Assembly: GCA_965223425.1 (NCBI GenBank)
Contig: OZ245003.1
Coordinates: 896,001-960,000 of the forward strand
Reading direction: 5' to 3'
Source of the DNA: Nitrosopumilus sp.
GTDB lineage: Archaea > Thermoproteota > Nitrososphaeria > Nitrososphaerales > Nitrosopumilaceae
DNA: 64,000 bases
Shown here piece after piece: positions 4,388-35,838 of this stretch. A program made the translations under genes and the position numbers. Numbering within the stretch: position 1 is the first letter of the stretch; every line of letters begins with the position of its first letter. The notes beneath the pieces are model-generated. The model searched no databases, was not told where the DNA came from, and was given only the letters and a program-made list of their open reading frames with translations.

Positions 4388-6772
4388 TTATTGTTGCAGC
4401 GAATCTATAATTTGCTGGGGAATCTTAGTGGTAGGAGAGATCTCTAAAATCATATTTGTTATTAAATCTCTATATTCCTTGTGAACTTTTTCTAAGATAT
4501 CTGGATTTTCTGTTTTAATATAATTTAATGCCCGATTGAGCGGCAATACAGACTCTTCAGAAAAAGAATCTATTTCTATGATTTTATCCATAAACAAAAC
4601 AGCCTTTTCTAATTTATCATCTTTAACCAATTCTGTAACAGGTAATAACGATATGAAATATGCATCGATTGTATATCTTCGTGCAAGCGTTTCTAATGAA
4701 TCAAACAACATTTCCGTAAATTTATTTTCGTTTTCTGCCATTGTATGAGCTGCGTAATGGGCAATATCTCCGGCAATTTTTGGTACAAGTTCTTTTTGTA
4801 ATTTTTCATCCAAATTTGACAAATTACCAAATGTGACATCAACTACTTTTGATAATAATCCTAGATCGTTTGTGCCTCCCACTGCATCAAGAATTCTAAA
4901 GAAATCCTCAAAACCGCTATTTATCAGATCAATGGCTATTTTTTCAGCATCTTGTACTTTGTTGATCTCCACTAGGCACCCAAGTCGTAAAACATTCACT
5001 TCCCTTCCAATTTTGTCTTTTGGAATCTCTGATAATGCTTTTGGAATCTCTGATAATGCTTTTGGAATCTCTGATAATACTTTTAGAGCTTTTTTGAAAT
5101 CCTTTCTATGGATCATTATTATAGATTTTTCTAGCATAGATGAAGTACAAGAATAGTTAATTACCGCCATAGATAAATCAACATATTTTTCAGCCTTGTC
5201 TAGTTCATTTTTTTGTATATAGTGTGATGCTAGTTTGTGATACATTTGATGAAGCCATGCATGTTCCTTAGAATCTGATTTGTTTTGATACTTTTTAGTA
5301 ATTCTCATTAACTTGTTTTCCACCAGATCTCTTTCCTTTACAGCATCTCTTAGATGTCCATATTTTTCAGAAGCCTCAGACATGCAACACCTGGCATGAG
5401 CCATTGATAGTTCAGCTGCCAAAGAAATTATCTTATTAGACATTTGTTTTTTAAATTCCTCCACGCTTTTTATTTCACGGAGTGCAGAATCAAAATCTCC
5501 TATGAGCATAAATCTTTGCACTGTGTTTTCCAAATCAAGAATTTTCATATCAGGCATAGTATCTAAAAGGTAACATGCATAAACAAGATGTTTTTTAGTG
5601 TCTTCCTCAGAATGTGTAGATATTTCAAAAAATCTATCTGAGAGTTGCCTGTATTCAAAAAGTCTTTCTTTTCTGGTGTACCAAATTTTTAAGAAATTAA
5701 TAAACAAACTGATCCTTTTTGATCCGATTGGGGAACGCATCTCTCTCCAAATTCGATATAATCTTTCAGTTACTTGGTATGATGTTTCCTTCTTATCTCT
5801 AAATTTTATTGCCTCTGCTATGCCATTATTTTCTAAACGACGCAGTTGGGTGACCACACTTGCTACTTTCATTTTAGTTATTTGTGCCAGTTCTGTGGGC
5901 GATATTGGTCCTTTTTCTTGAGACAACGTATCTACAATCTTTCTTTGGGTTATGGACAATTGCTCCATTCGAACTTGATAGTAAGGGGTAAGTTGATCCA
6001 GTAATTCAAGAAGATTGGATTCCAAATCTACCAATGAATTTTTTTGGAGTAATATCTCACAAAGAGCATGAGTTAACCGAGGGTTTCCGCAAGTAAGAAT
6101 GTGTATCCCTTTGACTCGTTCTGTGTATTTTTCAAAATTTTTAAGCAGTTCTTTTTTCCCTCCACACTCAAATCTTTTTTTAATTAATGTTCTCATTGCT
6201 TTAACATTCAGTCCTTTCAAAAATGTTACATCCATAAAATTATAAAACGGTTCGTCATGTGAGGAAATTTCATGAAATACTGTCAAGGCCGAACCGACTA
6301 TGCAAAAGGGATTATGTTCTTGTAAAATAGCTCTTAACTTTGGTAATTCATTTTCCATCTGTTCAAATAACATTTGTAAATTATCTACAAAGATTACTGG
6401 AAATTTTTTTTGATTTTTAAGGTTATTGAATTCATTTAATGCAGTTGCTTCAACATTATTTTCATCAAATTCAACATTAAGCTCTTCTAGAATTCTTTTA
6501 AATAAATTCTCGACACTTGTTACAGAATATTCTTCCTCAGATAACCGTATAGTTGTAAAATTACTGAATTCATTTAATTTATGATATATTTGTAATAGCG
6601 TGTGTGTTTTTCCGATTCCTCGCTGACCTACTAATAAGATATGTGTAGCTAAATTACTTGAAATCGAATTTTGAAGTTTTTTAACGATATTGGCTACTGT
6701 CTTCTCCCTTCCAGTCGAAATGTATTCCAGGTCTTCTTTAGACATTAAATCAGGGGTAAATTTGTAGAACAT
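4388..6772 (-). CDS. STAND-like AAA+ ATPase with winged HTH and TPR-like helical C-terminus
   Basis: Walker A GQRGIGKT, Walker B IFVDN, GNPR motif, SPTELAQ...LRRLENNG wHTH. Confidence 0.8.
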   Translation of the reverse strand: MFYKFTPDLMSKEDLEYISTGREKTVANIVKKLQNSISSNLATHILLVGQRGIGKTHTLLQIYHKLNEFSNFTTIRLSEEEYSVTSVENLFKRILEELNVEFDENNVEATALNEFNNLKNQKKFPVIFVDNLQMLFEQMENELPKLRAILQEHNPFCIVGSALTVFHEISSHDEPFYNFMDVTFLKGLNVKAMRTLIKKRFECGGKKELLKNFEKYTERVKGIHILTCGNPRLTHALCEILLQKNSLVDLESNLLELLDQLTPYYQVRMEQLSITQRKIVDTLSQEKGPISPTELAQITKMKVASVVTQLRRLENNGIAEAIKFRDKKETSYQVTERLYRIWREMRSPIGSKRISLFINFLKIWYTRKERLFEYRQLSDRFFEISTHSEEDTKKHLVYACYLLDTMPDMKILDLENTVQRFMLIGDFDSALREIKSVEEFKKQMSNKIISLAAELSMAHARCCMSEASEKYGHLRDAVKERDLVENKLMRITKKYQNKSDSKEHAWLHQMYHKLASHYIQKNELDKAEKYVDLSMAVINYSCTSSMLEKSIIMIHRKDFKKALKVLSEIPKALSEIPKALSEIPKDKIGREVNVLRLGCLVEINKVQDAEKIAIDLINSGFEDFFRILDAVGGTNDLGLLSKVVDVTFGNLSNLDEKLQKELVPKIAGDIAHYAAHTMAENENKFTEMLFDSLETLARRYTIDAYFISLLPVTELVKDDKLEKAVLFMDKIIEIDSFSEESVLPLNRALNYIKTENPDILEKVHKEYRDLITNMILEISPTTKIPQQIIDSLQQ
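5017..5084. repeat. 21-bp coding tandem repeat x3 (ALSEIPK)
   Basis: CTTTTGGAATCTCTGATAAT(G/A) repeated three times in frame. Confidence 0.95.
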
Positions 6773-28966: not shown

Positions 28967-29048
28967 CACCCCGTTGTTGCCAACGGTAGGCAACAACAGG
29001 GCAATAAACCACCCCGTTGTTGCCAACAGTAGGCAACAACAGGGCAAT
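28967..29048. repeat. Tandem duplicated hairpin (43-bp period, x2)
   Basis: CACCCCGTTGTTGCCAAC(G/A)GTAGGCAACAACAGGGCAAT twice, each with a GTTGTTGCC/GGCAACAAC stem. Confidence 0.9.
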
Positions 29049-29785
29049 CAGCGGCCCTGACTTTTCTCTGGGGGTCCGGAAAATGTGGAATTGCCTGCTT
29101 GATTCAAAGAAGTCGCACCTGCATAATCTAGCAGCTCAAAGGTAAACATTACTGGCGGATCATCTGTGTTCCAAAACGGATTATATGCAATTGCAGTGAT
29201 TGGAAATGCAACGTCTTGCGATATCATAAATGTGCTTTGCTCAAAGATGCCGTACTGTATTGCAGATACGTCAAGTGTGTTGCCGTTTTGCAGCTCGATG
29301 CTGTCCTCAAAGCTTACCACAAGCTTGTCTCCGCTATACAGGGACGGTGAGACATCTCCCCAGACGGCTCCAACCTTTAGATGCTTTGGGGAATGCGGAG
29401 ATGCAAACTGTGCAATGTAAAAGATCGTCTCTTCAATGGAACGTGCGACATCCCTTCCTGCAAACGTGCTAACCTTCATCGTGTCTGAATCCAACAAAAA
29501 TATGTAGTGTGCAACTGCATTATCAACTGTGACTTCTGCTTGAACTATCCAGTAGCTTTTGTTTTCAGAAAATAGTTCTGCATAAAAATCCATTCTTATC
29601 TGGTAGCACTCATGCACTACTGATTGCGAGTCGCACACATGATACGTAAAAAAATCTCCCGGTATGATTGACTTTCCTGCATGCCACATGTCTGCTAAAT
29701 AATATGCAGCAATGTCGTCTGCATCATATGCAAATGCAGGTGTTACACATGCAATCAATACAGGTATCGCATAAACGTATCTCAT
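29048..29785 (-). CDS. Secreted hypothetical protein
   Basis: Signal peptide (TPAFA), 245-aa ORF. Confidence 0.7.
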   Translation of the reverse strand: MRYVYAIPVLIACVTPAFAYDADDIAAYYLADMWHAGKSIIPGDFFTYHVCDSQSVVHECYQIRMDFYAELFSENKSYWIVQAEVTVDNAVAHYIFLLDSDTMKVSTFAGRDVARSIEETIFYIAQFASPHSPKHLKVGAVWGDVSPSLYSGDKLVVSFEDSIELQNGNTLDVSAIQYGIFEQSTFMISQDVAFPITAIAYNPFWNTDDPPVMFTFELLDYAGATSLNQAGNSTFSGPPEKSQGR

Positions 29786-29830: not shown

Positions 29831-30064
29831 TTATTTCCATTCTTGGTATCCGTCCAGAGTCCATACCTTCCAGCCTTTTTTGGCAAGCCTGCCATTAAAG
29901 ATCATCACCTTGCATCTGCGGCAAATCTTGATTGGTATGTTCTCCCTTTTTCGCTTCTCAAGTCTAACCAAAATACTTGGGGTGTTCAATGAGGCGATTT
30001 GGCATTCTGGACACCTGGGAGAATCATCCCGGCCATGTGTATTACTCGTCTCTTTATTTTTCAT
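29831..30064 (-). CDS. Small zinc-finger protein
   Basis: CPEC...CRRC. Confidence 0.55.
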   Translation of the reverse strand: MKNKETSNTHGRDDSPRCPECQIASLNTPSILVRLEKRKRENIPIKICRRCKVMIFNGRLAKKGWKVWTLDGYQEWK

Positions 30065-30656
30065 TATTACCGTACTGTACGGTACAGATCGATAAAAGCC
30101 TTATGTGCAGTTTGCCGTTTGCAAATGTCCCAATTGATGCAGAACAAAGAATAGAGGCAAGACCCCATGCATTCTAGATCGGATTTTGTGAGTTATCCAC
30201 TGACATGCATACCAAGCCAGCATTTCATTCAAGCTCAGATGGACTGGCAGAATATTCGAAAAATCCAAAAACGCCAAAAGAGATAATCAAGGGTTGAGAA
30301 AAATTCCGCATCCCTGACTTGCACTTTTGGTATTTTTTATTTGCAGTTCCCGTCTGAGAAAACAATATCCTGGCTGACTTGAAATTTTGGGCCTTTTATT
30401 TGAGGGCATATTTGATGCCGTGTCCAAAAATCCAAAACTGTCATTGTTTGAGGAGCTTGCAAGGGAGATGCTTGAAAATATCTGCAAGAGCCGCAGACCC
30501 TGCCATATGCCTGGCAGCTAGGACAGGCTACTGCCTTTTAAAATACTGCAGATAGCATGTCATGGATGAAACAGTAACAATTTCAAAAAAGTCATTCCAA
30601 GCCATACAGGAATTCATTATGCAGTGTGTAAAGAAGATAGATGAGATAGAAGAGGA

Positions 30657-30764
30657 CCTGCAGTGGCCCAAAGACATTACATGAGATTGCAAGCTCATGC
30701 AATGGCCATGCCAATTTCGATCATTGCGCCTGCAGTAGCTCAAAGACATTACATGAGATTGCAA
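30657..30764 (+). CRISPR. Putative mini-CRISPR (repeat-spacer-repeat)
   Basis: 36-bp repeats (34/36 identical) ending ATTGCAA, separated by a 36-bp unique spacer; no cas genes in the window. Confidence 0.45.
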
Positions 30765-30902
30765 AGGGCCACACCTCCAAAAATATTTTTTGCTGATTAT
30801 GATGTGGTTGCAAGTATTATTGTAAATGAGATCCCTGGCAGTCAATTTGCCCCAAACTGCATCTGTCTGCAGAAAATTCTGATACGAACCGTGCAGATAT
30901 AA

Positions 30903-32140
30903 TCAGATCGTATCTTCCTTGCAGACAGATGCATCCATATTTTTTATCATATGCAAGATTCCTGTTTCCTCTAGTTTGTCTCTAAGATCCCTGAGCTCCT
31001 TTAAATCCTGCATCATCTTTACGTTTGCAACAGACTGGAGCTTTTGATTCTGGCGTGCCTCCTTCTTGGTTGTTTCAAGCTCAGTCTTTAGACGAATGTC
31101 ATCAGATATTGTAAGATATGGGATTGCCTTTTGATATTCTGGGAATCGCTCAAAGTCTTCTTCTACGTATCTCTCATAGTTTTTCTCAAGGCCTACCCTG
31201 TGGCCCATCATGTCTTCCTTGTCTAGATAATTTACCTTTGCACGGCGCAACATCGTGTTGAAATATTTTCTAAAGCCATGATCAAGTTTTACTGCATGTC
31301 TCTTTCGTCCGGGTGGCAGTGGCAGTCTCAATCCTGCCTCCCTTGCAAGCATATCTACTCTTTTTCTTACTCCTTTTTGCATTAATCTCTTCATGCAGAT
31401 TTGATCAGTTGATCTTAACAATGGATTGTTAGGTTTTGGATATTCGGTGAGGTCGTTTTTCCACTTTTCTCTGTACGCCCACAAATATCCACATGCCTCC
31501 GGTGTGATAAATGTCCAGTAGCTTTCAGGGTCTCCGCGATACACCAGCAGTGCCGCTCCTTTGAATGTATCATCCTCGTGTCTGAAAAAAACTACATCCT
31601 GCCACGTAAAGTAATCCCATGACTCTAGTCTAAACCCTGCAGAAGAAAACATGGTCAAAATTACCTTGTCTGTAAGGTCATGTGCAAGTGACAGCATCTT
31701 TTGGATCTCTTCTCTGGTGTACGCCCTGTCTTGAGAGTTTACAGGTCTTGGATACAGGTGATACAAACGCTTCCAATGCAGTGCGGCATCGTTTGTATCA
31801 AGTAAAACTTTGATTGGCTTGACATAGTTTGGAATTGTGTTGGGACTAATACTGCCCTGTTCTACTAGTTTGACATAATGTTTGATGTATTCAGAAATAA
31901 TGTTGGTACCAATTATGCTGTGAGACTTGCACAACAACACAAAACATTCGGCTTGTGACTCTACAGTCTCATTTGGAATTTTACTGCTCAATTCCTCGTA
32001 AAGACCTGGTGGTATCTCTCCAAGAAATCGTTGCAGGTACTTGTATAGTGTCTTTTTGTTCCAGCATTTTTTATGCCGTCAAGAAACTTTTCATAGGGGA
32101 TACCGTCCTGAGATATTGTCTTCAAATCAATTTTTAACAT
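30903..32140 (-). pseudogene. int: Tyrosine integrase of the ICE, with a 1-nt frameshift at about 32040-32060
   Basis: AGFR, HGFRK, MGH and Y catalytic motifs. N-terminus MLKIDL...TKRHYT joins YLQRFLGEIPP in another frame. Confidence 0.85.
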
Positions 32141-32184
32141 ACGTTTTCCATGCCTAGAATCTAATTTAAGCACTCTAAGGGTAA

Positions 32185-32209
32185 TGGACCGGATGGTGTC
32201 ACAGCCCAC
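32185..32209 (-). repeat. att-like degenerate copy of the tRNA-Val 3' end
   Basis: TGGACCGGATGG identical to 35661-35672; CCCAC in the same register as the T-arm. Confidence 0.75.
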
Positions 32210-32619
32210 AGTGGGTTCAGACCGTCTTTTCATACGACGGCAGAAAGCGATTGGGGCGCTTACAATATCCCTATTTCTTATTTTTTAATCGGTGTTGGTT
32301 AAAATAGTAATAACAAGAATATGGATACATGGATAGAGACAAAAAAAAGCCAGAAAGAGAATTTACCGTAATCCGACACAACCTAATGGTGGAGGCAACT
32401 GCACCAAAGCGCCCAAAGCCTGTTGATACCAACACATCTGACTAGGTTCCAGCAACTTGCCCTTCTTTTCTTATGCCTTTGTGCACTAAAATCTGAAAAC
32501 TTGGCATCTGACCTGATCATAGAAATCTGTGTTTATCAGTTTCTAGCTAATTGACACGATGTGTTTATATATAATTAGCTTAGGCAAAAGCTAATTATCC
32601 AAACAAACATTACCAAATC

Positions 32620-35646: not shown

Positions 35647-35660
35647 ACCCACAAGGGGTA

Positions 35661-35754
35661 TGGACCGGATGGGATTTGAACCCACGACCTTTGCGGGAAT
35701 TACTTCCTTACGCAGTGTGAGTGCGTCATCCAAACCAAACTAGACGACCGGTCC
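35661..35754 (-). tRNA. tRNA-Val(CAC) with an apparent non-canonical intron 3' of the anticodon stem
   Basis: Acceptor GGACCGG/CCGGTCC-A, anticodon arm ACGCA-CTCACAC-TGCGT, T-arm GTGGGTTCAAATCCCAT; about 19 extra nt in the variable region. Confidence 0.92.
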
Positions 35755-35838
35755 AATAACTTTACAAAAACCAAGCTTTTGTGTCTTTAGATTCTGTAAT
35801 TACCTTGGCCTTTAGTACTGAAATTATATGATCTCCTT

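Follow-up and report, generated by a model that had tools for sequence, protein, structure and literature searches.

A CRISPR-like repeat-insert-repeat unit in a conjugative element of Nitrosopumilus is probably a footprint of off-target spacer integration

Virus-borne CRISPR mini-arrays exist, and the CreA of CreTA, with a spacer that partly matches the promoter of a small toxin gene next to it, is located within a cas operon or adjacent to one. Arrays that lack cas genes, with repeats identical to those of a host array, are carried by the thaumarchaeal integrated conjugative elements (ICEs) NCAV2-E1 and NitIsl-E1, according to the accessible part of Krupovic et al. 2019 (PMC6563490). Off-target spacer integration, in turn, is known mainly from engineered Escherichia coli and from test-tube reactions. 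In E. coli it yields 'neo-CRISPR' arrays (Nivala et al. 2018, as cited in the accessible text of 10.1101/148544, PMC7054753), and the Cas1-Cas2 of Pyrococcus furiosus carries out full-site integration in vitro at non-CRISPR sites one repeat length apart, as the accessible part of PMC6698737 describes. Our study concerns a repeat-insert-repeat unit of this general shape in a 64-kb stretch of Nitrosopumilus sp. DNA (the window hereafter; C1:896001-960000 of the 2.64-Mb archaeal genome analyzed, G000), where it sits in an ICE that carries TraG/VirD4-like, T2SSE and T2SSF genes and a methylase-HNH gene. A first-pass annotation of the window had taken the unit for a guide, encoded by the ICE and used in competition between elements or in gene regulation.

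Our analysis points elsewhere: the unit is probably the footprint of ectopic spacer integration by the Cas1-Cas2 of the host, with Cas4 at the locus. The reading that suits it best is that of an older member within a class of such units found across the genome (R1 and R2 agree at 34/36 positions and the insert and its source at 31/35), and its CRISPR-like geometry very probably has a CRISPR cause. Its parts are the following.

30657 to 30692, plus strand: R1, copy 1 of the 36-bp duplicated block, containing the final 9 codons and the stop of ORF-b
30693 to 30728, plus strand: the insert ('spacer'), 36 nt, with a part homologous to a nucleoside 2-deoxyribosyltransferase (NDT) gene at 30696-30730, 31/35 identical
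30729 to 30764, plus strand: R2, copy 2 of the duplicated block, 34/36 identical to R1

The two copies differ by two transitions, at repeat positions 9 and 12, and their starts are 72 nt apart; the 36/36/36 arrangement lies inside the 23-50 nt range of repeats, and a degenerate pattern of the repeat has two occurrences in the window against none in 100 dinucleotide-preserving shuffles. The 36-bp repeat, 36-bp spacer and second repeat with a 72-bp period that had been annotated are therefore real, the ATTGCAA(G) repeat end is present as ATTGCAA(G/A), and the open reading frame (ORF) of 40 amino acids (aa) said to end within the first repeat was recovered at 30562-30684, its stop inside R1. The weak third copy that had been suggested near 30801 fared less well, being outside the 72-nt register; the best repeat similarity within 30765-30860 is a marginal 14/17 at about 30795-30813 (p = 0.045, 2000 shuffles).

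The insert reproduces, in diverged form, part of the genome's own NDT gene (C1:1388173-1388655; PF05014, E 2e-25), with E 7e-6 for the 31/35 match, and corresponds to the antisense strand of the conserved NDT motif GVMIELGMAVAW. The homology is limited to the insert plus about 2 nt, with a 2-nt overlap (CC) of the insert end with R2, and Smith-Waterman comparisons of R1, R2 and the flanks with the NDT locus were not significant; in one of 10 tests, the 36 nt preceding R1 gave p 0.017 against DNA that flanks the NDT gene and lies outside it. Such a sharp, spacer-sized patch of homology makes the insert resemble a captured spacer and not a decayed pseudogene. The pseudogene reading was also tried directly and rejected, as tblastn of the NDT protein against 30001-31200 gave an 11-residue motif only, with no collinear remains. 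NDT genes are patchily distributed (29 of 401 family genomes), and among their loci the own gene and that of a relative, G371, are closest to the insert, both at 30/36, the other loci reaching 18-27/36. The annotation had also suggested comparing the spacer with viruses; a 26-mer of it gave no match in viral_contigs, the own NDT gene remaining the best match. The NDT gene lies 8 kb from a Cas1b fragment and Cas2 in G000 (C1:1379849-1388655) and 1.6 kb from Cas1 in G371 (G371:C1:1638182-1641116), which makes NDT a conserved neighbor of this CRISPR adaptation module.

We scanned the whole genome for isolated two-copy direct repeats, defined as at least 25/26 identical, with a repeat shorter than the period minus 15, a period of 40-200 nt and no other hit within 400 nt, the two CRISPR arrays of the host (A and B) being excluded. 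The scan returned 58 such repeats, 27 of them at a period of 71-75 nt, while any other period was represented 0-4 times.

Hits per period: 71 nt, 3; 72 nt, 11; 73 nt, 6; 74 nt, 5; 75 nt, 2

A looser threshold gave 31 units at periods of 70-76 nt, from which we dropped three coding tandem repeats (C1:442267, 602280 and 1708750) and two extra copies of one multiplied element (532092 and 1305096). The 26 independent units that remain, the one with the NDT insert among them, each have their own block and their own insert of about 35 nt; the blocks are unique, about 33-40 bp long and most often 36-37, with exact runs of 33-39 nt. The 'repeats' of the other 25 or so units are unrelated to one another, and many units lie inside genes. 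Two further units at G000:C1:1341213-1341660 (1341213 and 1341500, periods 74 and 77), about 290 nt apart and 16 kb from array A, were removed by the isolation filter.

The inserts of this class are of self origin. Of the 26, 15 are matched at 90-100% by another place in the genome, three of them identical over 29-35 nt (two of these 15 inserts derive from multi-copy elements, and one match spans 23 nt only), and for 11 no second match was found in the genome. Some units look young, their blocks and inserts being 100% identical, for example those at C1:105005, 168273 and 1303385. Twelve unique insert sources could be mapped: four are at 141,961-174,103, near the detrended GC-skew maximum at 143,835 (four of the 12 within 30 kb of it), and four at 1.296-1.421 Mb, around the CRISPR-cas locus. 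Levy et al. 2015 reportedly found that naive adaptation favors replication switch points and CRISPR loci.

Eight of the other units have empty sites, where insertion with target duplication can be seen. Many units sit within repeated elements, of which further copies in the genome could be used as the empty state. Ten comparisons with paralogous copies were made, and seven of them give a clean gap of 70-74 nt, that is, one block plus the insert (units 105005, 275652, 311394, 532092, 1565091, 1951927 and 2466831); in the remaining three, homology ends at the unit. The eighth case, unit 2401611, lies in frame within the gene of a 1112-aa helicase/HKD-nuclease and adds 25 residues, with PKPEKLGEKTLT on either side of a 13-residue stretch, that none of the 10 aligned homologs of 1080-1089 aa possesses; these lack 'SPKPEKLGEKTLT CRDQFMTANASLD PKPEKLGEKTLT' and have one short variable segment at that place instead. 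Some insertions are in-frame additions of 24-25 residues to protein genes. For unit 849893, a DNA search for the empty site found no orthologue in 100 genus genomes.

The host carries a type I-B system, with cas4-cas2-cas1, cas8b?-cas7-cas5-cas3-cas6b (cas8b being a doubtful assignment) and two arrays; the absence of cas genes that the annotation had named as telling against a guide is not what we found. Cas4, Cas2 and Cas1 are encoded at C1:1362.6-1364.5 kb within a CRISPR-cas locus that spans 1.357-1.380 Mb, and the Cas1b fragment with Cas2 lies at C1:1379.7-1380.4 kb, adjoining an insertion sequence; PF01867 (Cas1) has two matches in G000, and no other Cas1-family gene was found there. The genome accordingly holds adaptation genes in the form of Cas4-Cas2-Cas1 plus the Cas1b fragment with Cas2. 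In array A, beside cas4-cas2-cas1 and cas7-cas5-cas3-cas6b, 74 repeats of 36 nt alternate with spacers that measure 34-38 nt; array B is made up of seven repeats, also 36 nt long, and its spacers measure 35-38 nt. An insert of 35-36 nt and a duplication of 36-37 bp agree in size with the resident spacers (34-38 nt) and repeats (36 nt). Array B lies in a second ICE-like region (G000:C1:1674000-1692000), which also encodes ATPases of VirB4-like and VirD4-like type and holds a TBP-like gene. A fragment of Cas3g is about 8 kb from array B, whose repeat and leader are near-identical to those of a 164-repeat array of G371. Comparison of the host array spacers with the own genome gave one full self-match and none to the ICE. 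The match is that of array A spacer 71 (C1:1362329-1362362), the third from the leader end, which agrees at 34/34 positions with the own chromosome at C1:198216-198249, its protospacer flank reading TAT in the sense of the CRISPR RNA (crRNA); it is a self-targeting spacer of recent date, and the interference genes of its array are intact.

Relatives were scanned in the same way over the first 1.2 Mb of each, the comparison comprising three genomes. Cas1 (PF01867) is present in G371 and G372 and was not found in G370, G368 and G259.

G000, Cas1 present: 14 isolated repeats at a period of 71-75 nt in 1.2 Mb
G371, Cas1 present: 16 isolated repeats at a period of 71-75 nt in 1.2 Mb (18 at periods of 70-76 nt)
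G259, Cas1 not found: 1 isolated repeat at a period of 71-75 nt in 1.2 Mb

The units are nearly absent in this one relative in which Cas1 was not found. In G371, where the 164-repeat array lies beside Cas1 and has a 36-nt repeat with periods mostly of 71-76 nt (mean 73.98), seven of the 18 inserts have a second match of 100% within the 1.2 Mb, two of the seven being copies of one unit.

The surroundings of the unit are poorly conserved. Across 200 sampled genomes of the family, nothing corresponds to the DNA around it, and three genus-g20 matches to R1 there, lying within a conserved coding gene, look like chance and were set aside; among 120 genus genomes, only G371 has a counterpart, of 30226-30638 at 67% identity, which keeps two small ORFs and a TATA-like motif and has no repeat-insert-repeat unit. 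The local features are these.

30387 to 30521, plus strand: ORF-a, 44 aa, its peptide LSLFEELAREM conserved in G371 with synonymous changes
30534 to 30546, plus strand: CCTTTTAAAATAC, which resembles a TATA box and lies about 20 nt ahead of the start of ORF-b; unchanged between the window and G371; putative ORF-b promoter
30562 to 30684, plus strand: ORF-b, 40 aa, its N-terminal ~25 aa conserved in G371
30786 to 30791, plus strand: six consecutive T, 22 nt beyond R2; a possible archaeal terminator of the ORF-b transcript

From the ORF-b stop to the start of the unit there are 8 nt, if R1 is the native copy. In the mechanism that we propose, a prespacer of about 35 nt would have been cut from an NDT gene belonging to this lineage, attacks staggered by about 36 bp would have joined it into the element DNA 8 nt past the ORF-b stop, and gap repair would have duplicated the 36 bp between the attack sites, the 'repeat' being plain target DNA. 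The same process would have struck at least 25 other chromosomal places. The unit itself most likely has no function and does no more than make the ORF-b transcript longer in its 3' untranslated part.

These units share with the 'neo-CRISPR' units of Cas1-Cas2 an insert of spacer length, a duplication as long as the resident repeat and the presence of cas1 and cas2, and in both the 'repeat' is ordinary target DNA and the inserts come from the cell's own DNA. The published cases differ in that, as far as the accessible texts describe them, they come from over-expressed E. coli type I-E or purified P. furiosus proteins, whereas the present genome has about 26 events that are natural and fixed, and a relative has at least 16 in 1.2 Mb, some events falling in frame within protein genes. 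In the open-access literature searched, we found no report of natural genome-wide off-target integration or of CRISPR self-acquisition in Nitrosopumilus. On balance it is likely that the adaptation machinery of this ammonia-oxidizing lineage misfires genome-wide, leaving dozens of insertions of about 72 nt in chromosomes and mobile elements. If this is true, Cas1-Cas2 is a standing source of mutation, of protein-loop innovation and of seeds for new arrays, and the units would supply a natural data set on which targets and prespacers an archaeal type I-B integrase prefers, evidence for in-frame remodeling of genes by CRISPR adaptation, and a concrete route by which new repeat families originate.

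It is important to note that several observations weigh against this reading. The targets do not resemble the repeats: the blocks agree with repeat A at 14.27 of 36 positions and with repeat B at 13.46, where random 36-mers give 14.44 and 13.61, and the target of the unit in the window resembles the array A repeat at AGATTG.AA only; by comparison, the off-target sites of P. furiosus resemble the repeat at its edges and in its middle, according to the accessible part of PMC6698737. No leader-like motif was established at the blocks, and no consistent protospacer-adjacent motif (PAM) at the insert sources, whose flanks were read by eye; the NDT source has TTG as its flank, and only the one self-match (TAT) informs the host PAM. 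The periods of the units in G000 (mean 72.77) fit array B (72.67, p 0.98) and differ from array A (71.32, p 3.5e-6), which is the array beside the intact Cas1, and the adaptation genes that possibly belong to array B are broken in G000. Insert length (33-41) and duplication length (33-38) vary more than their sum (71-75), the duplication having been computed as the period minus the insert, so that this length 'compensation' is partly built in. In addition, the insert differs from its best source at 4/35 positions and R1 from R2 at 2/36, from which it follows that the true source was probably a different NDT allele. G371 has no unit at the counterpart site and is too diverged there to display a single block as an empty site, the repeat showing no significant similarity to the end of its ORF-b (p 0.56-0.92). 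The association of units with Cas1 rests on three genomes, and the Cas1-less one, G259, carries one unit (C1:106317-106424, 36/36/36, blocks 34/36), which is perhaps left over from a lost system, or else may be evidence against Cas1 as the agent. Finally, off-target integration does not predict the palindrome at the junction.

30675 to 30704, no strand: 30-bp near-palindrome, 13/15 arm pairs, center 3 nt inside the R1/insert junction

This near-palindrome is the sole one of its kind in the window (mean of 0.15 per window in 20 shuffles), and its hairpin recurs in predicted RNA folds.

Several of these points would suit an undescribed process unrelated to CRISPR, possibly template switching, that adds about 72 nt by combining a short copy of own DNA with a target duplication. 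Such a process would account for a sum tighter than either part, for targets unlike CRISPR repeats, for the lack of an established PAM and for a unit in a Cas1-less genome; the junction palindrome with its CC overlap between the insert end and R2 would fit it as well, and dozens of events per genome have no precedent as natural off-target integration in the literature searched. We nevertheless regard it as unlikely, although less so than any other alternative. The period and the duplication of about 36 bp coincide with the 36-nt-repeat arrays of both unit-rich genomes, units number 14-16 per 1.2 Mb in two Cas1-positive genomes and one in the Cas1-less genome, and the length 'compensation' follows from the measuring procedure. 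Hairpins are not enriched in the units (mean best stem score 5.35 against 5.42 in random 108-mers, p 0.87), and the clustering of sources at the CRISPR locus and the skew switch point fits known adaptation biases. If Cas1 were not the agent, the data would indicate an undescribed insertion mechanism that works like a ruler.

The guide proposed by the first-pass annotation would be a working mini-CRISPR array without cas genes, or a CreA-like RNA, of the conjugative element: a transcript from the ORF-b promoter, with an ATTGCAA(G/A) handle, would be loaded by the type I-B system of the host and would target NDT-carrying rivals or regulate NDT, which implies a processed RNA of about 44-70 nt with an 8-nt ATTGCAAG 5' tag. 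The 36/36/36 geometry fits the spacer sizes of the host, a TATA-like motif lies upstream and a T-run downstream, and a plus-strand transcript of the insert would be antisense to the NDT mRNA, four of the six differences from the own NDT gene still permitting G:U pairs. Thaumarchaeal ICEs with cas-less arrays have been published (PMC6563490, accessible part), and the second ICE-like region of G000 bears array B. Like the arrays of NCAV2-E1 and NitIsl-E1, the unit is on an integrated conjugative element of an ammonia-oxidizing archaeon whose host has type I-B cas genes, a parallel that array B shares. Those arrays, however, have 69-96 spacers, host-identical repeats and spacer turnover in the accessible part of PMC6563490, whereas the unit has a single insert, shows no turnover and carries a repeat that was not found elsewhere. 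With CreA it shares two repeat-like elements around one spacer-like element and a partial resemblance to CRISPR repeats; unlike CreA, it is about 430 kb from the cas genes, its module is not conserved, and its insert matches an NDT coding motif and not the promoter of an adjacent toxin gene.

The array A repeat, read in the sense ending ATTGAAAC, has AGATTG.AA in common with the unit repeat, that is, 8 of the final 10 nt, which favors a guide; outside these 10 nt the agreement falls to 5/26, whereas near-identical repeats are needed for use in trans, as the accessible part of PMC6563490 indicates, and the array B repeat is unlike that of the unit. True CRISPR repeats ending GATTGCAA(C/G/T) are common, and this ending is a natural handle variant, since many true arrays carry such repeats. 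Among 187 arrays whose repeats contain GATTGCAA, the best agreement with the unit repeat is 22/37, including the 8 fixed bases, and so the repeat proves unrelated to any CRISPR repeat examined, an outcome that the annotation had itself named as fatal to its reading. A 20-mer of the unit repeat had no match in genome_contigs or viral_contigs, in an exact-word scan that misses diverged relatives; its single match in metagenome_contigs, 22 nt exact at the 3' end of a small GTPase gene, was taken as chance. The unit repeat was found in no CRISPR array elsewhere, whether in the host arrays, the contig scans or the 187 arrays.

Neither conservation nor structure favors a guide. The unit is missing from G371, and no unit-like repeats occur within 1.5 kb of the 29 closest integrase loci. 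Its sequence is identical in the contigs of three further studies, where no variant is listed and there is no sign of spacer turnover; no unit-less form was found among these contigs, though contigs drop rare variants. As predicted RNAs, neither the repeat nor the unit nor the putative transcript folds more stably than shuffles do. No RNA run is listed among the sequencing runs that contain this stretch. The 25 or so units with unrelated 'repeats', many of them intragenic, demand the same explanation. With a repeat unlike those of the host, a spacer from an own gene, G371 without the unit and some 25 sister units, the claim of an ICE-encoded guide is unsupported, and we hold it to be quite improbable. 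As a warning, a solitary repeat-spacer-repeat on a mobile element should not be equated with a guide RNA unless the remaining genome has been checked.

Least probable is that the repeat is a coding duplication in an ORF at 30663-30902 (plus strand, 79 aa) or a pair of binding sites for the integrase or an excision factor, because, although both differences between R1 and R2 are synonymous in the plus frame PAVAQRHYMRLQ, the unit adjoins an integrase gene and the palindrome lies at 30675-30704, chance alone yields two third-position changes in about 1 of 9 cases (an estimate), the ORF starts with GTG only, inside R1, has no Pfam or PHROG match and no G371 counterpart, none of 29 related integrase loci has such repeats, and both views leave the NDT origin of the insert and the other units unexplained.

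Off-target integration remains our preferred account of the unit, and the element around it has the following features.

30903 to 31991, minus strand: divergent tyrosine-recombinase-like integrase with weak family matches; the unit is downstream of its gene
32184 to 32196, plus strand: att-like direct repeat adjoining the integrase gene, in which 13 nt copy the 3' end of tRNA-Val (ATGGACCGGATGG)
35660 to 35755, minus strand: tRNA-Val(CAC), at the border of the element

The tRNA-Val(CAC) gene, the sole Rfam match, is the likely integration target of the element. We also considered the unit as an att site and rejected this, as its repeat is unrelated to tRNA-Val and the copy of the tRNA end is elsewhere, at 32184-32196. 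The integrase matches Pfam Phage_integrase (E 0.007), PHROG 1 (E 0.0011) and Pyrococcus abyssi XerA (E 0.038), and its relatives occur in 198 of 401 family genomes.

Other duplications in the window include a 43-nt tandem duplication at 28967-29052 (two copies, 93%), which lies between two element ORFs and contains the inverted repeat GTTGTTGCC...GGCAACAAC, and a 21-nt unit in three tandem copies at 5017-5087, within the gene of a 794-aa STAND-like ATPase. The integrase region (30842-31991 and 31988-32233) looks damaged at both ends, the protein having 362 aa where its homologs have about 390-470. At its start, an 81-aa ORF overlaps it (31988-32233 region); at its end, in comparison with G371 and G370, it lacks the C-terminal CxxC...CxxC tail, an insertion of about 25 nt terminating the frame earlier, and a remnant of the tail is readable in a different frame. 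Its stop codon is bracketed by a perfect 14-nt inverted repeat (30858-30871 and 30920-30933). A copy of its N-terminal half, 99% identical, lies 1.5 Mb away at G000:C1:2411200-2411697 and includes the upstream att-like region (96.7% over 784 nt), and a further integrase fragment, 75% identical, is found at G000:C1:463574-463969 (0.46 Mb).

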